Source: Candidatus Saccharimonadota bacterium
GTDB lineage: Archaea; Micrarchaeota; Micrarchaeia; Micrarchaeales; Micrarchaeaceae
Assembly (NCBI RefSeq): GCF_002214165.1
Contig: NZ_CP019964.1
Location: forward strand, 660,001-692,000
Direction of reading: 5' to 3'
DNA length: 32,000 nt
Shown here piece by piece: positions 6,522 to 32,000 of the stretch; position 1 is the first letter of the stretch; each line of letters begins with the position of its first letter. The position numbers were made by a program, and so were the translations under genes. Below the pieces are notes generated by a model. That model saw only the letters and a program-made list of their open reading frames with translations. It did not search any database and was not told where the DNA came from.

Positions 6522-7619
6522 ATGCAAACAAATATTTTAATTGATAGGCTTAATAAGATTTTTAGATCGACGGATCTTGATGCAATACTTCTGTTTAACG
6601 TAAATTCACCATTCATAGATAGCAATTTCTACTACTTGACAGACTTTAATAGTGGGATATTTGAAAGATCGTTTGCAATCGCATTCAAAGATCATGTAAT
6701 AGTAGGCACTTCGGATTTGGAATATGAAAATGCTTGCATAGGATCAAACGACCATATCAGCGTATACCGTATAAATACCACCAGCGAGGTAGATAACTTC
6801 CTTAGCAGAAATTTGAAAGATCTTAAGGTGGGGTATAATGAGAATTTCCTTCCATATATTTATTACCAGAAATTTAAGAAGTACGCAAAATTCAATAAAC
6901 TGTTCAATGCATCAAAATATTTATACGAGGCAAGGAATATCAAGGATAAATATGAAATAGAAAAGATAAAAAAAGCGGTTGATATAAGCAAGAAGAGCTT
7001 GGATGAGATACAGTATTACTTTAAGAAAGGGGTTACTGAAAAGGAATTGGCGGCCCAATTCAATTACCTGCAACTTAAAAATGGTGCGGACAAGAATTCT
7101 TTTGGGACCATAGTTGCATTTGACAAGAACACCGCTCTCCCCCACCATTCACCGGATAATACAAAATTAAAGGATAATGCTGTTGTTCTCTTGGATGTTG
7201 GATCGAAGTGGAAGAATTACTGTTCCGATCTGACCCGGACCTTCTTCTTTAAGCCTCAAAAGAGGTCCTTGAAGTACAAAAAGATGGCGGACATATATGA
7301 TACAGTGGAAAAAGCGCAGGTGCTTGGATTGGGCTTGATTAAGGATGGGGTTGATGGCAAGAATGTATTTGAAGAGGTAACCAAATTCATAAATACTGCC
7401 AATGGTGGCATTTATAAGGGCAAATTCATACATTCCCTTGGACATATGATAGGCATAGATGTACATGATGCAGGAGCTGCGGCACTATCCTATAGGAGTG
7501 TAAAGCTTCAAAATGGGATGGTACTCAGTGATGAACCTGGAATTTATATTTATGGTTTTGGAGGGGTAAGGATAGAAGATGATGTATTAATAGATGGCGG
7601 TAGGGGAGTATTCCTCTGA
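6522..7619 (+). CDS. M24-family Xaa-Pro peptidase (PepQ/aminopeptidase P-like)
   Basis: Metal-ligand context typical of M24B: VLLDVGSKWKNYCSDLTRTF, HSLGHMIGIDVHD, LSDEPGIYI, GGVRIEDDVLI. Confidence 0.85.
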   Translation: MQTNILIDRLNKIFRSTDLDAILLFNVNSPFIDSNFYYLTDFNSGIFERSFAIAFKDHVIVGTSDLEYENACIGSNDHISVYRINTTSEVDNFLSRNLKDLKVGYNENFLPYIYYQKFKKYAKFNKLFNASKYLYEARNIKDKYEIEKIKKAVDISKKSLDEIQYYFKKGVTEKELAAQFNYLQLKNGADKNSFGTIVAFDKNTALPHHSPDNTKLKDNAVVLLDVGSKWKNYCSDLTRTFFFKPQKRSLKYKKMADIYDTVEKAQVLGLGLIKDGVDGKNVFEEVTKFINTANGGIYKGKFIHSLGHMIGIDVHDAGAAALSYRSVKLQNGMVLSDEPGIYIYGFGGVRIEDDVLIDGGRGVFL

Positions 7620-7645
7620 ATCTGCATTCTCTTGGATGATGATCT

Positions 7646-8617
7646 ATGATATTAGGAATTGAGAGCAGCGCACATACATTGGGGGTTGGAATAGTAGACA
7701 ATGGAAAGATATTGGCCAATTCAAAAAAGATGTACGATATAAAGAATTCCGGGATGATCCCTGCAAAGGTCGCTGATTTCCATGCAGAAAATGTTTACGA
7801 AGTCATAGAGTCGGCACTTGAATCTGCCGGCATAAATATCAATCAACTGGATGGGATAGGTTATACAAAAGGCCCTGGGATAGGGCCGTGCCTGCATGTA
7901 GGGCAACTGGCAGCTTTGTATCTTGCGTACAAGCTAAAGCTACCTATTTACCCAGTAAACCATGCAATTGGCCACATTGAGGTAACCAAGCACTTGGCTG
8001 GGTTCAAGGATCCACTGGCACTATATGTAAGCGGAGGCAATTCTCAGGTGCTTGGAATAGTGGGCAAACCTAGAAAACATTACCATGTATATGGAGAAAC
8101 TCTTGATATAGGGGTTGGAAATATGCTTGACAACTTTGCAAGGGCGGCTAAGCTGGTTCCTGCCTGGGGTTCTACAGTTGCAAAGGCAGCAGAGAATGGA
8201 AAGTATATAAAAATGCCTTATAATGTAAAGGGTATGGATTTTACATTCACAGGGCTTCTTACAAATGCCGTAAAATTGCTAAGCTCGAACAGGGTTTCTG
8301 ACATCGCATTTTCACTTCAAGAAACCGCTTTCTCAATGCTTACAGAGGCAACAGAGAGGGCGCTTATGCTTACGGGTAAAAAAGAGCTTGTGCTTTCCGG
8401 TGGTGTTGCGCAGAGCCAAAGGTTGAGGGGCATGCTTGGTGAGATGGCTGAATCCCACGGTGTAAAGTTTTATGATGCTGACAACCAGTTCAATGCGGAC
8501 AATGGCGCCATGATAGCTTTGGTGGCAGAGGAGATGCATAATTCCGGAGCAAAATTTGAAAATAGCCAGCTTGGGATAAACCAGAAATATAGGATAGACA
8601 AGGTTGATATTTTATGA
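7646..8617 (+). CDS. kae1: tRNA N6-adenosine threonylcarbamoyltransferase Kae1 (KEOPS subunit)
   Basis: MILGIESSAHTLGVGIV, NHAIGHIE, YVSGGNSQV, GETLDIGVGN, SGGVA..RLR: the classical Kae1/OSGEP motifs. Confidence 0.9.
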   Translation: MILGIESSAHTLGVGIVDNGKILANSKKMYDIKNSGMIPAKVADFHAENVYEVIESALESAGININQLDGIGYTKGPGIGPCLHVGQLAALYLAYKLKLPIYPVNHAIGHIEVTKHLAGFKDPLALYVSGGNSQVLGIVGKPRKHYHVYGETLDIGVGNMLDNFARAAKLVPAWGSTVAKAAENGKYIKMPYNVKGMDFTFTGLLTNAVKLLSSNRVSDIAFSLQETAFSMLTEATERALMLTGKKELVLSGGVAQSQRLRGMLGEMAESHGVKFYDADNQFNADNGAMIALVAEEMHNSGAKFENSQLGINQKYRIDKVDIL

Positions 8618-17883: not shown

Positions 17884-17904
17884 AAACTGCAATTAAAATA
17901 CAAA

Positions 17905-17979
17905 TGCTCCCACCGAGATTTGAACTCGAGTTTCAGCCTTGAGAGGGCTGTGTCCTTGACCGGGCTAGACGATAGGAGC
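17905..17979 (-). tRNA. tRNA-Glu (anticodon CTC), 75 nt, no intron, CCA not encoded
   Basis: Hand-folded sequence GCTCCTA-TC-GTCT-AGCCCGGTCAA-GGAC-A-CAGCC-CTCTCAA-GGCTG-AAAC-TCGAG-TTCAAAT-CTCGG-TGGGAGC-A. All four stems pair, with G-U wobbles only. Confidence 0.9.
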
Positions 17980-18063
17980 ACATATTGCAGGTTAATTTTG
18001 ATGTTAATATTATTAATAATTTTTGTTGGCCATGCTTTTCCGGTTGCCGCATTGCTTATATTT

Positions 18064-24458: not shown

Positions 24459-26165
24459 TTAAGATATCCCCTTTTTCCTTGCAAATGTGAATCCGTCCAT
24501 GAATAGGTACTTGGAATTTGAGACCAGCATTGTATAAATTGCGTCTTCAGGTGACAGGGCTATTGGCCTCAGGCTCAAGTTCATTCCAGTATTTAGCACA
24601 GATCCATATCCAGAAAGATTCTTTAAGTGCTTGAGCAGATGCTCGAAATTTTGATTTTCGTCTGAGACTGTTTGGGTGTCCACACTGCCGTCAAGCCTCA
24701 TCACTGAATGCATCGCCTGCTTTGCATCCTCGTTTACATAATGCGCTATATTCATAAAATCCCGTCCTTCCCCATTTTTATAATCAATTAGGTAGGGAGC
24801 GTCTTCTGAAAGCAGTGACGCTCCGTAATTATGGAAAAGCCCTTCCCTTTTGATATATTTGTCCATCCTTCCCTTTGATAGGTCATTGTTGGTTGAAGAT
24901 AAAATGCTCCTGTTCCCTAACCCAAATCTTGAGTATTCGGATCTTCCCTGGAACCAAAGTATATAATTTCCCTCTTCTATAAGCTCGGCTGCGTGCTCGG
25001 CCTGGTCCCTTGGATTCTCCCTCTCTGGCTTTAGCCTATTAGACTTTGCCGCATTGCTAATTTCATCTTCACCATATGACTCACCCAAGTAAGGGGTGAA
25101 ATTGTATTGGCAAATTCCGTTCAGCTTGTAATTCAGGTACATGGCAGAACCTAGAGCCAATCCACCCTTGCTCGGATATGGGGATACATGCAGCCTGCCA
25201 ATATTCTCCAAATTTGCAATGCTATAATTCAGCTTTGTGTTGGATGCCATTTCTCCCCCTATTGCAACATCCTTAACGCCATACCTGTCTATTACACTGG
25301 CAGCAAACTTTGAAAATAAGTATTCTATCTCCTGCTGGACCATATAGGAAAATCTTTCCGGTGGGTATTTCCAAGCTATTTCCCTAAGCAACTTATATTC
25401 CTTTATAGGGCCGTACCTGCCATGCATGTATGTGCCGTCCACATCCAAGAGGCCTTTGATTACATTGTCGTTCATACTATATGGATATGAATATACAGAC
25501 ATTTCCATCAAACGCTTTGCGTTTGGATCTCCATGTATCCCAATTATTGAGCTTGCCTGCGAGTAAATCCGACCGACTGAGTCCTTTGACTTGATATTGA
25601 TCTGGCTCTCCAGCTTGCCCTTCTTGAAGGTTGATACCATACCGGACAAGCTACCCCCAGTTAGGTCCATGGTAATTACTAAGGAGTCACTAAATGGTGA
25701 GGTAAATGCTGACAGTGCTGATTCCGCCATCTGGCTGTTTACTTCGTGTAAGTTGAAGTCCTTAAATCCCAGAGCATTTAGGTTTCTGTAAACATTTTTC
25801 TTTCCAAGATATCTGCATAAAGGCGAGACTCCTGCATCCTCCGATATGTATCCTATTTTACGCTTAAAATGTTCAAAATTAGGGCTCCCGTAGTTACCTA
25901 TTTCATAATTATATATTTTCTCGTTTAGCCTCTTTGAGATCCTCCTTGCATTTCCTTTGGTATCCGTGCTGCAAAATGCAATTTCGTTCACATCTGAAGG
26001 CTTTATTTTTGCATACTTCAAGGCTGCTTTGATGGAATTGCTTGGGAAAGTCGGTTCGAGTAGAGTTCCTGTAAATCTCTCTTCATTCGATGCATAGATT
26101 ATTTGCTCATTGTCGATTAGAGCTGATCCAGAGTCTGTCCCATCCCAAATTCCTAATACATACAT
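24459..26165 (-). CDS. carbamoyltransferase, NodU/CmcH family (COG2192)
   Basis: MYVLGIWDGTDSGSALIDNEQIIYASNEERFTG is the typical N-terminal ASKHA/Kae1-like domain start. 568 aa. The C-terminal carbamoyltransferase domain ends in LNTGMNL....P. Confidence 0.85.
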   Translation of the reverse strand: MYVLGIWDGTDSGSALIDNEQIIYASNEERFTGTLLEPTFPSNSIKAALKYAKIKPSDVNEIAFCSTDTKGNARRISKRLNEKIYNYEIGNYGSPNFEHFKRKIGYISEDAGVSPLCRYLGKKNVYRNLNALGFKDFNLHEVNSQMAESALSAFTSPFSDSLVITMDLTGGSLSGMVSTFKKGKLESQINIKSKDSVGRIYSQASSIIGIHGDPNAKRLMEMSVYSYPYSMNDNVIKGLLDVDGTYMHGRYGPIKEYKLLREIAWKYPPERFSYMVQQEIEYLFSKFAASVIDRYGVKDVAIGGEMASNTKLNYSIANLENIGRLHVSPYPSKGGLALGSAMYLNYKLNGICQYNFTPYLGESYGEDEISNAAKSNRLKPERENPRDQAEHAAELIEEGNYILWFQGRSEYSRFGLGNRSILSSTNNDLSKGRMDKYIKREGLFHNYGASLLSEDAPYLIDYKNGEGRDFMNIAHYVNEDAKQAMHSVMRLDGSVDTQTVSDENQNFEHLLKHLKNLSGYGSVLNTGMNLSLRPIALSPEDAIYTMLVSNSKYLFMDGFTFARKKGIS

Positions 26166-26265: not shown

Positions 26266-26273
26266 TTTAAATA
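26266..26273 (+). promoter_or_regulatory. TATA box (TTTAAATA) of the membrane-protein operon
   Basis: Exact TTTAAATA octamer 17 nt before ATG 26290 and 38 nt before ATG 26311 (the latter preceded by AGGT). Confidence 0.45.
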
Positions 26274-26289
26274 TACTCTTTTAATTAGT

Positions 26290-26694
26290 ATGTTAAGCAA
26301 AGGTAATAATATGGGACACAATGTAATTTCGTTTGTATCTGCACAGCAGGACAAAATTAGACTTTTGGCGCTTTTGGGGGCAGTAATTTTTGGGTTTGCT
26401 TCAATGACAGCAGGAGCTACCTCATATTCAAATGTAACTAATACTATATGTGGTGTTTACACAGAGATAAAGACAATAGTGTTCATACTTGGTTTGGTGC
26501 TGGTTATATTGGGAGCTATAATGTATGCGGTAGGGCACGTACTGCCAGCCACTTCAAGAGGTTCTATACAGGGTTATGGAACGGGAATGATAATGGCAGG
26601 TATAATAGCTGTAATAATAGCAGTTCTAGCACCATACATATTGAGTACAATAGGTGGCAACGCGTATGCAAATGCAATCGCAAGCTGCAGTTGA
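26290..26694 (+). CDS. small exported membrane protein: signal peptide plus two hydrophobic helices; VirB2/TrbC-pilin-like architecture (tentative)
   Basis: KIRLLALLGAVIFGFASMTAGA is signal-peptide-like. Helix 1 is IKTIVFILGLVLVILGAIMYAVG, the polar loop is HVLPATSRGSIQGYG, and helix 2 is TGMIMAGIIAVIIAVLAPYIL. Alternative start ATG 26311. Confidence 0.5.
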   Translation: MLSKGNNMGHNVISFVSAQQDKIRLLALLGAVIFGFASMTAGATSYSNVTNTICGVYTEIKTIVFILGLVLVILGAIMYAVGHVLPATSRGSIQGYGTGMIMAGIIAVIIAVLAPYILSTIGGNAYANAIASCS

Positions 26695-26769
26695 ACTTGA
26701 TATTGTTTGGATATTGCCTTCATGGCTTGCCCTTAACCTTTTGGGTTAAGGACTAATCAGGGTTGTTTT

Positions 26770-27501
26770 ATGGATTACAGATTTTGGAATTACTCCTTAA
26801 AAGTTTATAGAAGCAATTTCAAGCTGTTCTTATTCTTTTCTATCGCATTTCTCATTGCTTTTTTAATACCATTATTCGCTTCGGTGCCCGCGTACAGCGA
26901 CTTGGGATCAATTTACCTTAGGTCATCAAGCGTTTACTTTGGAAGCAGCATATTGGGTTTTATTGTCATAATAATTTCCACTCTATTCTCCCTCTTGTTT
27001 CTGAGCTTTGCAATAGTATCAATAAATTTGATAGTCAAGCAGCAGAGGACCTCGGTTAAACTTAGCAGCAAGATGTTGAAGGGAATAGAGGTTTACATAT
27101 CAAGGGTGTTTGTTCTGCTTTTGATATTTACATTTGTAATAATGGGAGTAAACCTTTCTATGTATGGATCGGGATTTGATGGTATAGCCACGGCTGTTGC
27201 CATACTCATATTGACACCTTTCTTCATATATACGCCATCCAGCATTGTAATAGAGGACAGGAAAGTTATTAACGCGATACTTTTCGGGTCAAGGTTCCTG
27301 TTCAAGAAATTCGGATACTTCCTTATTTTTCTGGTTTTCGGAATAGTTAGCTTATCTGTTGTAGGGTTTGTCTTTGACCTTATACCAAATCCCGTAATTT
27401 CAGGATACATGCAGTTAATAGTAGACTCTTTATTTGTACTTCCATTTTTAGTATTGCTGCTTTCGGAGATGTATATAAGCAAATTTGCAATGCTAAAATG
27501 A
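26770..27501 (+). CDS. polytopic membrane protein (about 6 TM), unknown family
   Basis: 243 aa with six long hydrophobic segments and short basic loops (KQQRTSVK, EDRKV, LFKKFG). No catalytic motif recognised. Confidence 0.6.
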   Translation: MDYRFWNYSLKVYRSNFKLFLFFSIAFLIAFLIPLFASVPAYSDLGSIYLRSSSVYFGSSILGFIVIIISTLFSLLFLSFAIVSINLIVKQQRTSVKLSSKMLKGIEVYISRVFVLLLIFTFVIMGVNLSMYGSGFDGIATAVAILILTPFFIYTPSSIVIEDRKVINAILFGSRFLFKKFGYFLIFLVFGIVSLSVVGFVFDLIPNPVISGYMQLIVDSLFVLPFLVLLLSEMYISKFAMLK

Positions 27502-27547
27502 TAACCTTTAATATTTTTATATTTTATACTAAATTGCATTTGTTATA

Positions 27548-28906
27548 TTGGAGACTGTGGTGCCTGTGAAAAGACTCTATTTAATTTCACTCGTTTTGGC
27601 ATTTATGCTACTTCTGAGTTATAGCGGCGCTGCGCCTACTTCATCTACTGGGTCTAGGTGCATAGTCACAGGCACATCAATACCCCTGGGCCAGTGCGTT
27701 CTTTCAAGTTTCCCTATCGCACTTCTTGGAATTGGCATCTCACTGCTTATAATAGCAATCGCCTTTATGGTAAATGCCATATTTAACCTGAAAGGGCTGA
27801 AAGCTTGGTATGTTGGTGAGCTTTGGGAAGTCACAAAGAGCATGATTGTCATAATCGTGGTTTTCACAGCAATACTCCTATTAAGCTCTATAGCTATATT
27901 GAGCGTTCCCTCAACCAGCACGTGTGTTAACAGCTACGCACCTACCTCATCCATAAGCAATAATCTTGGAGGTTTGTATGGATTGAGCGATTGCTACTTG
28001 GGCGAGGAGTTCAATGATGTAAATACCTCTTTTTACGGTCTGTTCGGATTGAGCATGGGATTGGGTTCCGTCAAAAGCTTGCAGGTTGTTACCTTTATAC
28101 CAATCCCTCTACCTGTTGTCTTTCAGATGGGCAGCATGGCGAACCTTTATGTCAGCAATATAATAGACCATACCTCATTGGCTTTGTTCTCTTTTATAAA
28201 GGATTTGATGGAATTCCTGGTACTTCCATTATACATCATACTTAGGATAATACAGTACGGTTCAGGGGAGTCCCTTTTCATGTTGGGTTTGGCAATATTC
28301 CTTCCGATAGGCATAATACTCCGGGCATTCCCCACTTTGAGAGGCATTGGTGGGGAATTGATAGGTATTGGCATTGGCATTGGGTTGGTATTGCCTATAT
28401 TGCTTTTGTTTATCAACCAGCCGATAACTTCGTACATAGCACCTATAACCACGTTCCCGTCTATAACTGGGACGCTTAGTTCGGAATTCTCATTATCGAC
28501 CAGCTCAGCAGGCTCTCTGTTGGGTAGTTTGTCAGGGGATATAATAGCTGCGGCAGTAAATGTCTTTGCACTGCAGGAGCTTACTTTAACAGCACCGGTA
28601 ACCGTAAGCCTTGGATTGTCAAGTTCAACGAGTTATATAACTACGTGCTTAAGCGTTAGTGGATGCACTTCTACTTTTGATCCCGCTTACGCTTTTATAT
28701 ATGGTTTTTATATAGGGATAGTAAACTTGGCCACCCCTTCGGTATATCCAATATGGAATTTCTTGATGGATATATCACTTCCTATTTTATTGTTTTACCT
28801 TTTATTAATATTGGATTTGATATTGACTATAATAATATCAGATTCAATAGCAAGATTTTTAGGAGGAAGAGTAAGATTAGGTATAGGAAAATTCAAGATA
28901 GCGTAG
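27548..28906 (+). CDS. large polytopic membrane protein, paralog 1 of a tandem family (signal peptide present)
   Basis: Shares three motif blocks with the next genes (see findings). S/T/Cys-rich predicted exoloops. GGAG at 27550-27553 suggests the true start is GTG 27557/27560 rather than TTG 27548. Confidence 0.7.
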   Translation: METVVPVKRLYLISLVLAFMLLLSYSGAAPTSSTGSRCIVTGTSIPLGQCVLSSFPIALLGIGISLLIIAIAFMVNAIFNLKGLKAWYVGELWEVTKSMIVIIVVFTAILLLSSIAILSVPSTSTCVNSYAPTSSISNNLGGLYGLSDCYLGEEFNDVNTSFYGLFGLSMGLGSVKSLQVVTFIPIPLPVVFQMGSMANLYVSNIIDHTSLALFSFIKDLMEFLVLPLYIILRIIQYGSGESLFMLGLAIFLPIGIILRAFPTLRGIGGELIGIGIGIGLVLPILLLFINQPITSYIAPITTFPSITGTLSSEFSLSTSSAGSLLGSLSGDIIAAAVNVFALQELTLTAPVTVSLGLSSSTSYITTCLSVSGCTSTFDPAYAFIYGFYIGIVNLATPSVYPIWNFLMDISLPILLFYLLLILDLILTIIISDSIARFLGGRVRLGIGKFKIA

Positions 28907-28913
28907 TGTTATT

Positions 28914-30071
28914 ATGAGTGTTGCAGTAAATTCGTGCCAGCTTTTCGGTGGGTCTAGCTATGTAACCGGATGGCTTGGAATGATATACCTTGTAATGGGG
29001 GTATCAATATTCATAATAGTTGTAGTTTACATCGTCAGCAAGCTTCTTACTTCATCACTTAATGCTAAATTGACTGCAGTGGTAAAATCAGAAATAATGC
29101 AGGTATTTTTAGTCGCAATAATAATACTTATATTGATGTCGTTCTTAGAAACATCCTGCAGCCTTACTACAGGAGTAAGCAAAAGCTTGACAGGTATGGA
29201 TTTGACGCCATTCCAATTCTCCAGTTATTATCTGGGAAATTTGGCATTTGGTAGGGGAATAGATATACTTGAACAAGTATATACATATGCTATAACTTAT
29301 GCTATAGATTCCAGGATTTGGGGGATTATAGGCACTCTTACAAGCCTTACTTCGCCTGACATACCTTTAGGTAGCCTAGTCAAAGTCAGCTTTCCTATAG
29401 GCGGGGATTTGGGGGGCATGTATTCCATAATCTCCGATGGGTACATTGCAATCCTTGCTCCTATATTGGTAATCTCAATCGGAATGCTCCAGCTGCAGTG
29501 GCTGGCCCTGCCAGTGATAGAGTATACGGCATTTACAGTTATACTGCCAGTAGCCCTGGTACTCAGGATATTCTCGTTCTCTGGTGGAGGATTGAGGCGT
29601 GCATCTAATGACTTCCTTGCTCTAGCGATAGCGATGTACCTGATATACCCATTGATGATTTCGTTCGATGCATATGCAATTAGCTTTATATTCAGCCCTG
29701 CAAACCCTGTTTACAGCTGTACGAACTGCCTTAACACACCGTTTACTGTCAATACTACCAGCTCTGCCGGATTTTTCTCTAGTATATACAACTCAACTTC
29801 AACCGCGTCTTCAACAGGGTTTTCGGTCACTAGTCCGTCTATAAATACGTTGCTTAGCACGACCATTCTCTCAAGCTATGCTTCCTCCCTTTTCCCTCCT
29901 GAAGCGATAGTTGAATTCAACTCGATAATATCAGAGATGGGCCAGTATATTTTCACTGCCCTGTTCATGTTTGGCATTGACATAGTTGTGACGGTGGCAT
30001 TTGCGATGGGATTGTCAAGAGGATTAAATTCCGGAATAGAGGGCGCTGCGTCGTTCTGGTCAGGAATATGA
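28914..30071 (+). CDS. large polytopic membrane protein, paralog 2
   Basis: Lies 7 nt after paralog 1. Shared motifs KSEIMQV, ILPVALVLRIFSFSGGG and a Gly-rich C-terminal tail. Confidence 0.7.
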   Translation: MSVAVNSCQLFGGSSYVTGWLGMIYLVMGVSIFIIVVVYIVSKLLTSSLNAKLTAVVKSEIMQVFLVAIIILILMSFLETSCSLTTGVSKSLTGMDLTPFQFSSYYLGNLAFGRGIDILEQVYTYAITYAIDSRIWGIIGTLTSLTSPDIPLGSLVKVSFPIGGDLGGMYSIISDGYIAILAPILVISIGMLQLQWLALPVIEYTAFTVILPVALVLRIFSFSGGGLRRASNDFLALAIAMYLIYPLMISFDAYAISFIFSPANPVYSCTNCLNTPFTVNTTSSAGFFSSIYNSTSTASSTGFSVTSPSINTLLSTTILSSYASSLFPPEAIVEFNSIISEMGQYIFTALFMFGIDIVVTVAFAMGLSRGLNSGIEGAASFWSGI

Positions 30072-30081
30072 GGTTTAAAAA

Positions 30082-31506
30082 ATGATAGATACAATGCTTG
30101 CGATAACGTCCTTTTCCAATACAAGGACAAACCTTATACCGCTTATAGCCCTGGCTATAGGCCTGGACGCATCGTTTGTGAGCATTTGGTACATATTGGG
30201 CAGCCTGTTGAACAACAACTCGCTCAAGCAATCCGCAATAAACGAGATTTATCAGCTTTTTGGAAACATAATTATAGTAATATTGATAGTATTCCTTCTG
30301 CTCGCGTTCAGCAGCATATTCTACAACTCGCTGCAGGGAACAAAGATGATGAACAGCACCACTATATACAGCATGTGCCAGAACATCAACAGCTCTTCGA
30401 GCCTTTCAATACTAAATCCCAGCGATTCTGGCAGCGGCAGCTCCCTGCTTTATAGCGGCAAGTCGGGAAGTTTCCCTGGCTTATGCGAGATGGTCAAGAA
30501 CCCGACGACGACAACTGAAAAGATAGACTACCCGGTTGCTACTTCAGCTGTGATACTTGCAAATTTGACAAACCAGACTTTTACAAACCTTAACTATCTG
30601 TTCGGTGTCGAGGCTTACATTGGTTTCTTAAGCAAGCTTACACCCACTGATGCAATATGTACAGGTGAAATAGCTCCCCCTGACATAATACCGATTTCAT
30701 GCGTGGTTCCATTTTCAAGCCTTCCTATACTGCTGTTCATAAGATCCCAATATACCCCCTTGTCAGGTTACAGCGCAATTTATTCAGGGCTGGCAACTTT
30801 AGGGGGCTTGATTACTACTGCCATGGAGTCATTCACCGCCCAACTGCTTATAATAGTCTCATTCATTTACGTATGGCCAATACTTCTTTTCTTAGGGCTC
30901 GCATTGAGGTCTGTATTCTTTACTAGAAGGATAGGGGGATTGTTTATAGCGCTAGCCGTTGCATTCATATTATTTTACCCTTCTGTAATGGCCCTTGAGT
31001 ACCTTAGCCTCAACCGTGTGGTTGCTCCGACTGATGTGCTTACAGTAAACAGTACAGTAGTAGGAAGCAATGTCATAGCGCCCGTATACAATTACACCGA
31101 TACCTCTTCAAACAAGTTGGGTAGCTTAGACTTCTTTGTTGAACCCAGCATAAAGAGCGTTGCGCAGTCAACATCCTGCTGGGCGGGGACAGGTTCGGGA
31201 TTGATATTGACAGAGTCTGGGATGATTCTTGAAACCGACTCTGTTTCAAACCTCGTAGATTTATATAAAGTTTTTGACGGTGGATTCGATGGGGATGTTG
31301 GGGCATACTCGTTAGGGCTCGCGACATGCAATGAACAAGGTGCAATAAGCACCCTTTTTGCTTCATTTGATATATATGGAATTATGGGCATAACTGCATA
31401 CCTGCTACCGATATTTAACATAATAATAGTTATTTCCGGAGTAGTTGGACTATCTGGAATGCTCGGAGGGGATACAAATTTGGCTGGATTGAGTAGATTG
31501 TTATGA
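30082..31506 (+). CDS. large polytopic membrane protein, paralog 3
   Basis: GAGGT lies 8 nt upstream of the ATG. Shared motifs LKQSAINEIYQL, VWPILLFLGLALRSVFFTRRIGG and the C-terminal tail SGMLGGDTNLAGLSRLL. Confidence 0.7.
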   Translation: MIDTMLAITSFSNTRTNLIPLIALAIGLDASFVSIWYILGSLLNNNSLKQSAINEIYQLFGNIIIVILIVFLLLAFSSIFYNSLQGTKMMNSTTIYSMCQNINSSSSLSILNPSDSGSGSSLLYSGKSGSFPGLCEMVKNPTTTTEKIDYPVATSAVILANLTNQTFTNLNYLFGVEAYIGFLSKLTPTDAICTGEIAPPDIIPISCVVPFSSLPILLFIRSQYTPLSGYSAIYSGLATLGGLITTAMESFTAQLLIIVSFIYVWPILLFLGLALRSVFFTRRIGGLFIALAVAFILFYPSVMALEYLSLNRVVAPTDVLTVNSTVVGSNVIAPVYNYTDTSSNKLGSLDFFVEPSIKSVAQSTSCWAGTGSGLILTESGMILETDSVSNLVDLYKVFDGGFDGDVGAYSLGLATCNEQGAISTLFASFDIYGIMGITAYLLPIFNIIIVISGVVGLSGMLGGDTNLAGLSRLL

Positions 31507-32000
31507 CAAGATTAAGATTTGCGGCGGTTGGCATTTCGCTGTTCTTAGTGTTATTCATGGAGCTTGGCACCGGATTTGCACCTGCAGCCACAACCAGTTA
31601 TCTGCCAGCCAACCTATGCGGGAGCATGTACAATGTGGCAGGGAATCCAACAGGGTTTGTAAAATATGAGAGCTTGACTGGCTTGTTGGCGATATCGCTC
31701 ATACTTTTGACCATAATGCTTCTCATCACTGGAGTACTGTGGGCATTTGGCGGTCTGCTGGAAATGCCAAAGCTGAAGGAGTCAGCAAGAAGCGAGATTG
31801 GTGAGGTACTACTCACAGGATTGATAGTTGTTATAATTTTAGGCTCGTTTTCGCTGACCAATTTTTCGGCAGGAGATGCCCTTCCCCTATCGAATGGGCT
31901 TTTCAGCTCGCGCATCTATTATGATGACTGCAATGTGATATTTACTGGGGTACAGAAAGGTATATCTGAAGATATAGGGCTTTTGGCTTATGACGATGTG
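31503..32000 (+). CDS. large membrane protein, paralog 4 (N-terminal part; continues beyond the window)
   Basis: Not in the ORF track because there is no stop before the window end. ATGA overlap with paralog 3. Hand translation: MTRLRFAAVGISLFLVLFMELGTGFAPAATTSYLPANLCGS...LKESARSEIGEVLLTGLIVVIIL, carrying the family N-terminal motif. Confidence 0.6.
   Translation, partial: MTRLRFAAVGISLFLVLFMELGTGFAPAATTSYLPANLCGSMYNVAGNPTGFVKYESLTGLLAISLILLTIMLLITGVLWAFGGLLEMPKLKESARSEIGEVLLTGLIVVIILGSFSLTNFSAGDALPLSNGLFSSRIYYDDCNVIFTGVQKGISEDIGLLAYDDV

Follow-up and report, generated by a model that had tools for sequence, protein, structure and literature searches.

The 32,000-nucleotide (nt) stretch of DNA analysed here (hereafter the window; contig NZ_CP019964.1, positions 660,001 to 692,000 of the forward strand) ends in six co-directional plus-strand genes, which according to the map of open reading frames (ORFs) encode membrane or exported products and reach past the window end. 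Reading of the same contig further downstream (locus L001, identical to the window over 11,919 shared bases) revealed these genes as the 5′ third, g1-g6, of an operon of 16 genes and roughly 17 kb, with the order pilin-like g1, g2 with about six transmembrane (TM) segments, paralogs g3-g8, the pair g9/g10, the P-loop ATPase g11 and g12-g16. In our judgement, this operon probably encodes a chromosomal, relaxase-less machine for pilus formation or translocation that is derived from a type IV secretion system (T4SS), i.e. a domesticated conjugation-type apparatus. This reading is based on the occurrence of a VirB2-family pilin candidate and a VirB4/CedB-like ATPase in one packed, strictly conserved chromosomal operon without relaxase or coupling protein; such a pilin and such an ATPase in one operon are the signature used to call T4SS.

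The tested proteins of the window and the operon were identical to their counterparts in “Candidatus Mancarchaeum acidiphilum” Mia14, with g1 showing 100% identity to a “multipass membrane protein” of this organism. Mia14 is a Micrarchaeon of the ARMAN-2 type (ARMAN, archaeal Richmond Mine acidophilic nanoorganisms), which has a very rudimentary metabolism and grows only with the wall-less Cuniculiplasma divulgatum (PMC5498576). An episymbiotic lifestyle of the organism had been raised as a possibility in the original prediction, made from the sequence of the window, and the identity with Mia14, living on Cuniculiplasma, bore it out. Public annotation of the operon genes reads only “multipass membrane protein”, “membrane protein”, “AAA ATPase” or “hypothetical protein”.

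Pilin candidate, ATPase and conservation of the operon

In the alignment of the g1 family, the signal peptide ends in a small-x-small motif, and a short, basic loop conserved as P-G-x-x-K/R-G-x-x-Q-G-Y-G connects two long hydrophobic helices with short external tails. The Pfam model PF04956 (TrbC/VirB2) was matched by 13 of 19 g1 orthologs (best E-value 9.7e-8) and PF18895 (T4SS_pilin) by eight of them (best 9.3e-7), with competing families matching no more than three orthologs each. With 29.2 bits over model positions 11-98 of 98, the ortholog from the locus L004 exceeded the gathering score of Pfam (27.9 bits), which several other orthologs narrowly missed. The earlier view of g1 as a VirB2-like two-helix protein has thus gained ground from its orthologs, and we consider g1 a candidate pilin of the VirB2/TrbC family. 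The single-sequence AlphaFold2 model of g1 contained helices at residues 3-34, 42-77 and 80-114, and its comparison with the PDB in Foldseek returned generic helical bundles only (best E-value 0.4), short hairpins carrying little discriminating signal; the g1 family profile had no match among PDB sequences.

All 19 pilins possess a pair of Cys residues, one located just before helix 1 and another within the last 1-10 residues, which probably forms a disulfide joining the two external tails. RP4 TrbC and Ti VirB2 cyclise head-to-tail, and the disulfide of g1 would be a functional parallel to it, a covalent stand-in. The distribution of Cys across the operon fits extracellular disulfides, as far as the predicted locations go: the predicted cytoplasmic proteins g9-g12, g14 and g15 lack Cys, and 2-6 Cys each are found in g1, g3-g8 and g16, which are predicted to be exported or surface-exposed (L001 6209-19849; L007 13987-16377). 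It should be added that the locus L006 carries two tandem pilin genes (7583-8038 and 8150-8575) ahead of g2, whereas most genomes have one. A type IV pilus or archaellum was also considered and rejected: the signal peptide of g1 is long, has an A-x-A-type end and is not of class III, two TM helices are present in g1, the ATPase is of the HerA/VirB4 type, and the Pfam and NCBIfam scans gave no PilC/FlaJ match.

Both Walker motifs of the ATPase g11, A (GITGAGKS) and B (FVVLDE), are intact. In Pfam, it matched the DUF87/HerA central domain (1.5e-17), AAA_10 (5.3e-13) and the TraG P-loop domain (1.7e-9). The NCBIfam ranking was headed by CedB (7.7e-19) and CedD (5.8e-17), followed by VirB4 of a Mycoplasma integrative and conjugative element (ICE; 1.1e-16, residues 32-322), the VirB4-like CD1110 (1.9e-16), HerA (4.6e-14) and TraC (1.8e-13), the E-values from CedB to HerA lying within five orders of magnitude. 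In the PDB, the HerA matches spanned about 110-160 residues of g11 around Walker B, and the C-terminal domain of VirB4 (4ag5) covered residues 59-326. A tblastn search with g11 against plasmids matched 382 records, 200 of them predicted to be conjugative, and the hits of best coverage (75% of the query, at about 24% identity) were annotated as TraC, the F-type VirB4. By sequence, g11 belongs to the FtsK-HerA superfamily and is best placed in its VirB4/CedB/HerA part; CedB itself was described as part of the VirB4/CedB/HerA branch (PMC9905601). The small protein g12 was found to be homologous to the C-terminal ~80 residues of the ATPase (blastp 2e-9 vs the L006 ATPase) and looks like a free-standing copy of this domain.

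Conservation was assessed in a pattern-limited scan in which each GTDB species was represented by one genome and the g10 alignment served as a query. Out of 49 loci returned, 45 were labelled Micrarchaeota, Micrarchaeia or Micrarchaeaceae. The other four, labelled Marsarchaeota (L033, L053 and L055) and Acidoferrum (L038), had a complete operon of the Micrarchaeota type with g10 identity of 49-53%, and are probably mis-binned contigs. Classification of plus-strand ORFs at the 49 loci showed that the order g1-g14 was constant wherever the contig was long enough, with 14-16 genes overall; exactly six paralogs in constant order were present in every operon examined, and g15 and g16 followed g14 in all loci reaching that far. 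Each gene of the Mia14 operon has a clear 1:1 ortholog, and the identity of 31 ATPase orthologs to that of Mia14 was in the range between 63 and 75%. Furthermore, no relaxase, coupling protein, integrase, partition or replication gene was detected in the roughly 40 kb read, which included the interval from the arginyl-tRNA synthetase (ArgRS) gene to that of topoisomerase VI subunit B (TopoVI-B).

Since the synteny extends over 49 species with graded divergence, the flanks are of housekeeping nature and genes of mobile elements are lacking, the operon is, judged from its sequence and gene order, a vertically inherited chromosomal core locus and not a mobile island. The transfer module of a self-moving integrated conjugative element or plasmid appears to us highly improbable for the same reasons, to which the GC content can be added: that of the gene block (0.36-0.45) is like its surroundings and unremarkable against the rest of the window. 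Moreover, the operon genes do not occur in the four-way ortholog clusters with Cuniculiplasma, the list of which skips from Mia14_0724 (ArgRS) to Mia14_0744 (TopoVI-B), under inferred numbering of the tags; it should be noted that this list covers only clusters common to all four genomes. A mobile element would nevertheless account for the joint presence of VirB2-like and VirB4-like genes, which are its hallmarks, and for the matches of the ATPase to predicted conjugative plasmids, and the authors of the Mia14 paper speculated on conjugative islands, regarding membrane-protein-rich genomic islands as “likely conjugative elements” (PMC5498576).

Six paralogs, other membrane components and the proposed mechanism

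The products of g3-g8 share a common architecture: an N-terminal signal or anchor with a nearby Cys is followed by a helical hairpin, a variable Cys-containing ectodomain and a helical core, and the C-terminal part consists of a Ser/Thr-rich loop, the last TM segment and a basic tail. In the hairpin, an acidic motif (E..E) is conserved at the start of the second helix, after a Lys-containing loop, and the core has the motif R-x5-R-x2-GG ... P, with R255, R261 and P279 of g3 being (nearly) invariant in 108 sequences. Pairwise BLASTP similarity among the paralogs was weak (E-values from 1e-2 to 2e-4), yet the alignment of their subfamily profiles with hhalign gave probabilities of 85-99.3% (85-97.7% for g4 vs the others) and E-values down to 5e-20, a robust indication from profiles that g3-g8 are mutually homologous. 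Tandem polytopic paralogs had been expected from the window, and their homology has held; their number was raised from at least four to six, since reading past the window end added g7 and g8, along with the ATPase g11 of the VirB4/CedB/HerA type.

An exhaustive search with hidden Markov models in 1.84 billion representative proteins assigned to the paralog family 2,819 clusters at E ≤ 1e-3 and 1,726 at E ≤ 1e-10, and the few named matches were hypothetical proteins of Micrarchaeota. Word-indexed searches are nearly blind for such low-complexity membrane proteins: g1 matched only itself, and the paralog profiles yielded 25-27 matches. Scans of the six window proteins themselves in Pfam and NCBIfam returned nothing meaningful, and among 108 family members scanned no match was found in Pfam, NCBIfam or PDB sequences, apart from sporadic weak matches to T4SS_pilin (two members, at 1.5e-3). 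The AlphaFold2 model of g3 was of moderate confidence (pLDDT 64.7, pTM 0.64) and all-helical, with helices of 33-41 residues, and had no Foldseek match in the PDB or BFVD.

The paralogs have 6-7 hydrophobic helices and Cys-containing loops of 100-150 residues and are encoded directly after g1-g2. Their polytopic build, the large loop and the pilin-adjacent position resemble those of VirB6, TrbL, CedA and TedA, a resemblance and not a proof of homology. Their proposed VirB6-like nature found no backing in matches to VirB6, TrbL or CedA by Pfam, NCBIfam or PDB profile searches, or by Foldseek with the g3 model, and at the level of sequence the VirB6 homology of g3-g8 is unproven. An amplification of VirB6 in the manner of Rickettsiales, as also suggested earlier, does not describe them either: the paralogs are a fixed ancient set of six with 1:1 orthologs in every operon examined. 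The g1 family aligned with the whole paralog family in hhalign with a probability of 44.5% and an E-value of 2.3e-4, over 69 columns spanning the hairpin, which is marginal; with single subfamilies, the best value was 35.6% for g4, and the others did not exceed 9%. Control alignments of TM hairpins (the g1 profile vs g2 and g9/g10) gave E-values of 0.035-0.38. An N-terminal segment homologous to the cognate pilin was reported for CedA/CedA1 and VirB6/VirB2 (PMC9905601). By position and architecture, we regard g3-g8 as the best candidates for a membrane platform or channel. No precedent is known for such a fixed set of six ancient paralogs, which belong to a large family without annotation.

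We can lend hardly any credence to the view that the paralogs are ordinary solute transporters, flippases or glycosylation enzymes clustered by chance. They are polytopic and lie near a carbamoyltransferase gene, and in some genomes glycosyltransferases are encoded near the operon; however, none of the 108 scanned members matched a transporter, flippase or oligosaccharyltransferase family with support, the paralog profile matched nothing in the PDB, and large variable Cys-containing ectodomains and the fixed set of six in an operon with pilin and ATPase do not fit such functions. An assignment of the paralogs to an unrelated characterised family, named in advance as the outcome that would speak against a secretion or conjugation role, was not obtained in these searches.

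The ~6-TM protein g2 had been likened to VirB6/CedA, and this identity was not sustained: the family had no match in Pfam or the PDB and no CedA, VirB6 or TrbL signal, so that this candidate was rejected at the sensitivity of the Pfam, NCBIfam and PDB profile searches used. The only family matched was NCBIfam NF041043 (“BPSS1780 family membrane protein”), comprising uncharacterised membrane proteins, by 22 of 30 g2 orthologs (best 5.2e-8), the window copy remaining below threshold. Neither g1 nor the paralogs showed similarity to g2. The proteins g9 and g10 are distantly paralogous, and each has a hydrophobic N-terminus and a cytoplasmic domain of ~210 residues; they were considered as VirB3 or VirB8 and rejected, as the searches gave no match to anything. 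No Pfam domain was found at threshold in g16, and only faint winged-helix-like hints were seen in g14 and in the C-terminus of g16 (PCI 2e-3, FaeA 0.03). Altogether, 13 membrane or exported proteins surround the ATPase in the operon.

Several points weigh against a T4SS-derived machine. The window copy of g1 lies below every Pfam threshold (E > 1), its assignment being made via orthologs (47% identity to that from L004). The NCBIfam scores of g11 are far below the equivalog cut-offs (for CedB/CedD, 67.7 vs 700 bits), and g11 is about equally close to HerA repair or defence helicases, which give the best PDB E-values. The N-terminal domain of VirB4 (CagE_TrbE_VirB) was absent from the g11 protein of 500 amino acids (aa) in the Pfam scans, and VirB4 models aligned with it by their C-terminal ATPase half only; CedB-type archaeal ATPases are likewise short. 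No homolog of VirB6/TrbL/CedA, VirB3 or VirB8 was detected among g2-g10, and Foldseek searches with two models, g1 and g3, gave no match to a pilin or VirB6. Finally, the locus goes undiscussed in the Mia14 paper and its supplements (PMC5498576), and as far as the literature could be searched, it is not described in other Micrarchaeota papers or in archaeal “dark matter” or membrane-protein surveys.

Some of these points would be expected if the operon had no kinship with T4SS at all, with an ATPase of the HerA/FtsK type driving another envelope process, such as secretion, membrane remodelling or S-layer/surface assembly, and the TrbC-likeness of g1 arising by convergence. The best ATPase scores in the PDB and Pfam going to HerA-type proteins, the undetected VirB3, VirB6 and VirB8, the paralog fold without known match and the marginal similarity between g1 and the paralogs are all compatible with it. 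We consider this rather unlikely: the matches to TrbC and T4SS_pilin at 1e-7 to 1e-6 extend over the whole model in most orthologs and are beyond the usual noise of TM hairpins, as the above controls illustrate, and the VirB2-family pilin shares its operon with a VirB4/CedB-like ATPase. The Ced/Ted-like apparatus of the original prediction is supported by the pilin orthologs, the ATPase and the lack of relaxase, coupling protein and integrase, and is not supported with respect to the VirB6/CedA identity of g2 and the paralogs.

For the T4SS-derived machine, we infer the following mode of action, in which pilus assembly, the role of g2-g10 as a platform, the substrate and its direction, as well as the link to symbiosis, are to be read as conditional. 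The g1 preprotein would have its signal peptide cut by signal peptidase I, and the mature two-helix pilin would be embedded in the membrane, its two tails facing outward and probably linked by a disulfide. Hexameric g11 would dock on a membrane platform of g2, g3-g8 and g9/g10, extract the pilin from the membrane and polymerise it, the product being a hollow pilus or tube of the conjugation type. This structure may then contact a partner cell, which could be a sibling or the wall-less host Cuniculiplasma, and let macromolecules pass through. By analogy with the archaeal Ced/Ted importers, the substrate would most likely be DNA, which is also the most likely ancestral one. Relaxase and coupling protein would not be needed.

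Pili-like connections between ARMAN and Thermoplasmatales have been reported (PMC5498576). We tentatively put forward, as a possible though not the expected case, that the operon encodes the intercellular connector of ARMAN/Micrarchaeota: a disulfide-locked pilin tube on a hetero-oligomeric base of six paralogs, possibly one each per ATPase subunit, which would serve macromolecule exchange with the wall-less Thermoplasmatales host and be essential for episymbiosis. A strong alternative, though less likely than not, is that the same T4SS-derived machine is used for host exploitation in place of Ced-like DNA exchange, as a conduit or effector system that attaches to the host and moves proteins, lipids or nucleic acids as nutrients, a role proposed for the T4SS of Patescibacteria. 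This would agree with the retention of the operon in all Micrarchaeota operons sampled, in genomes of about 1 Mb, with the very rudimentary metabolism of Mia14 and its dependence on Cuniculiplasma (PMC5498576), with the fast evolution of surface-exposed parts (32-39% identity for the paralogs vs 63-75% for the ATPase), with the 21 glycosylation sequons of g16 and with the patescibacterial parallel. On the other hand, Pfam scans of the operon revealed neither effectors nor adhesin domains or lytic enzymes, the closest named ATPase models are those of DNA importers and conjugation ATPases, and the evidence from the operon does not separate the candidate substrates.

Gene block in the window and flanking genes

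Features of the gene block and of the remaining operon are compiled in Table 1. The ORF map bore out the layout read earlier from the window: six co-directional genes behind the box TTTAAATA, which is the sole intergenic TTTAWATA match 5′ of the block, with gaps between the longest ORFs from g1 to g5 of 75, 46, 7 and 10 nt, followed by an overlap of 4 nt (ATGA) between the g5 stop and the g6 start codon. Hydropathy analysis likewise agreed with the expectation that all six products are membrane or exported proteins, each having several strongly hydrophobic segments. The start of g1 is more likely ATG 26311 than 26290, because the NCBI model uses it and it leaves space for a transcription start behind the TATA box; AAGGT was found upstream of it. 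For g3, GTG 27560 is a more likely start than 27548, since it is preceded by GGAG and was chosen by the gene caller, and the g2-g3 gap is then 58 nt. Shine-Dalgarno-like motifs were clear before g3 (GGAG) and g5 (GAGGT, 7 nt 5′ of the ATG) and not evident before g2, g4 and g6, so that the ribosome-binding sites claimed for internal genes apply to the former two only. Operon-wide, the intergenic gaps range from -8 to 112 nt, and co-transcription of the block is suggested by this spacing and the strict synteny in 49 genomes.

The spacer between g1 and g2 contains a perfect hairpin; for the region of 81 nt, a folding energy of -19.8 kcal/mol was obtained, the z-score of -1.75 being modest, and stems of at least 7 bp are present in about half of the orthologous spacers. 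One may speculate that this hairpin acts as an attenuator or mRNA stabiliser setting the ratio of pilin to machinery. Moreover, the g2-g3 spacer (27502-27559) is very AT-rich (ttaatatttttatattttatactaaatt) with TATA-like strings and may include an internal promoter for the paralog block.

Table 1. Features of the gene block and the operon. Positions refer to the window unless marked L001; identities are to orthologs of the loci L004/L006 unless stated otherwise
Feature	Position	Strand	Description	Identity
TATA-like box TTTAAATA	26266..26273	+	A-rich stretch 5′ of the box; candidate operon promoter, read from sequence	
g1	26311..26694	+	Pilin candidate; 127 aa from ATG 26311; longest ORF 26290-26694, 134 aa	47% (L004 only)
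g1 Cys54, Cys133 (134-aa ORF)	26449-26451, 26686-26688	+	From alignment	
Hairpin in g1-g2 spacer	26731..26751	+	Perfect, 9 bp, stem of CCUUAACCU/GGGUUAAGG type, 3-nt loop	
g2	26770..27501	+	243 aa; ~6 TM segments by hydropathy; well conserved	47-49%; 40-48% across genomes
g3	27560..28906	+	Paralog 1 of 6; 448 aa from GTG 27560; alternative TTG 27548	32-39% (g3-g7 together)
g4	28914..30071	+	Paralog 2 of 6; 385 aa	33-39%
g5	30082..31506	+	Paralog 3 of 6; 474 aa; largest ectodomain; 7 N-x-S/T sequons	See g3
g6	31503..32000	+	Paralog 4 of 6; truncated by window end; 370 aa in full (L001 11422-12534)	See g3
g7	Just past window end	+	Paralog 5 of 6; 392 aa	See g3
g8	Just past window end	+	Paralog 6 of 6; 394 aa	46-49%
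g9	Downstream of window	+	273 aa; membrane-anchored, paralogous to g10	46-47%
g10	Downstream of window	+	277 aa; membrane-anchored, paralogous to g9	52-53%
g11	L001 16733-18235	+	ATPase, 500 aa; ~4.8 kb past window end	71-73%
g12	L001 18228-18557	+	Small cytoplasmic protein, 109 aa	
g13	Downstream of window	+	133 aa; CxxC motif and TM segment	
g14	Downstream of window	+	243 aa; coiled coil	
g15	Downstream of window	+	47 aa; basic	
g16	Downstream of window	+	796 aa; bitopic; 21 N-x-S/T sequons	

Downstream, the operon is closed by the convergent TopoVI-B gene, and upstream of it genes for ArgRS, a 287-aa ORF, Sec61-beta and a carbamoyltransferase are located. The latter, of the NodU/CmcH type, lies just upstream on the minus strand (24459-26165) and is divergent to the operon; its homolog at L004 (2677-4392) is located ~4 kb upstream of the operon, the synteny of the flanks being only partly conserved. 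In GenBank, g12 and g14 carry the tags Mia14_0739 and Mia14_0741, and by counting the block corresponds to Mia14_0728-0743. It should be added that Sec61-beta is MIA14_0736 in the Mia14 paper (PMC5498576) vs Mia14_0726 when counted from the GenBank tags, and the two numberings appear to be offset. The sole RNA gene detected in the window was that of tRNA-Glu(CTC), at 17904-17980 on the minus strand.

Comparison with known systems

The Ced and Ted systems derive from T4SS, lack a relaxase and consist of VirB2-, VirB6- and VirB4-like parts (PMC9905601). Ted of Thermoproteales (TedC, TedA and TedB) and Ced of Sulfolobales (CedA1, CedA, CedA2, CedB and CedD) are, similarly to the operon, archaeal, chromosomal and relaxase-less, and share with it a VirB2-like two-helix pilin, a VirB4/HerA-like ATPase and polytopic membrane proteins (PMC9905601). 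The signal peptide of g1 looks cleavable, which is TedC-like, and the best NCBIfam matches of g11 were CedB and CedD. In contrast to these systems, no CedA/TedA-like protein was detected in the operon, no HerA, Rad50 or ParA genes adjoin it, and it comprises 16 genes, including the six paralogs of a novel family, the g9/g10 pair and the 796-aa surface protein, vs about four genes in Ced/Ted. Furthermore, Ced/Ted occur in hyperthermophilic Thermoproteota, and the operon in DPANN Micrarchaeota. Domesticated machines of the Ced/Ted type are already known, and what would be new is a T4SS derivative in DPANN with a fixed platform set of six paralogs; if our reading is true, this type of domesticated conjugation machinery extends from hyperthermophilic Thermoproteota to DPANN.

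With bacterial conjugative T4SS (VirB/Trb/Tra, including TraC of the mating-pair formation class MPF-F, CD1110 of MPF-FATA and VirB4 of the Mycoplasma ICE), the operon has in common the TrbC/VirB2 pilin family and an ATPase to which bacterial VirB4/TraC align over about 290-375 residues. Unlike them, it is not on a mobile element, and VirB3, B5, B6, B8, B9, B10, B11 and D4, a relaxase and the N-terminal domain of VirB4 were not detected in it. The rvh T4SS of Rickettsiales has multiple tandem VirB6-like genes, and several large polytopic paralogs in tandem in a T4SS-type locus recall this arrangement; the difference is that VirB6 homology of g3-g8 is not demonstrable and that their set is exactly six, ancient and 1:1 across a phylum-level sample. 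As for HerA-NurA and HerA defence systems, they likewise possess a P-loop ATPase of the FtsK-HerA superfamily and gave the best PDB E-values, but the HerA matches are partial, whereas the VirB4 match spans the whole ATPase domain. A HerA-NurA repair module was rejected, no genes for NurA, Mre11, Rad50, Sir2 or other partners being present among the operon neighbours.

The closest ecological parallel appears to be the T4SS of Patescibacteria, or candidate phyla radiation (CPR). This chromosomal, relaxase-less system with VirB2-like pilins is indispensable for growth as an epibiont (PMC12102498). It is related to the MPF-FATA class and is similar to the operon in being widely conserved in ultrasmall episymbionts with reduced genomes and in having VirB4 together with VirB2-like pilins found by the same models, PF04956 and PF18895. 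It differs in being bacterial and in possessing recognisable VirB3 (PrgI), VirB6 and, often, a type IV coupling protein, which were not found in the operon, and no six-paralog set has been described for it. This parallel suggests a convergent reliance on conjugation-type machines for epibiotic life. Pili-like or tubular links between DPANN episymbionts and their hosts have been imaged, with genes not assigned to them, and the operon is a concrete candidate for this physical connection, supplying an identifiable pilin, a motor ATPase and a large unannotated family of platform proteins for study. If it is indeed the intercellular connector, the operon would be the archaeal counterpart of the essential T4SS of Patescibacteria.

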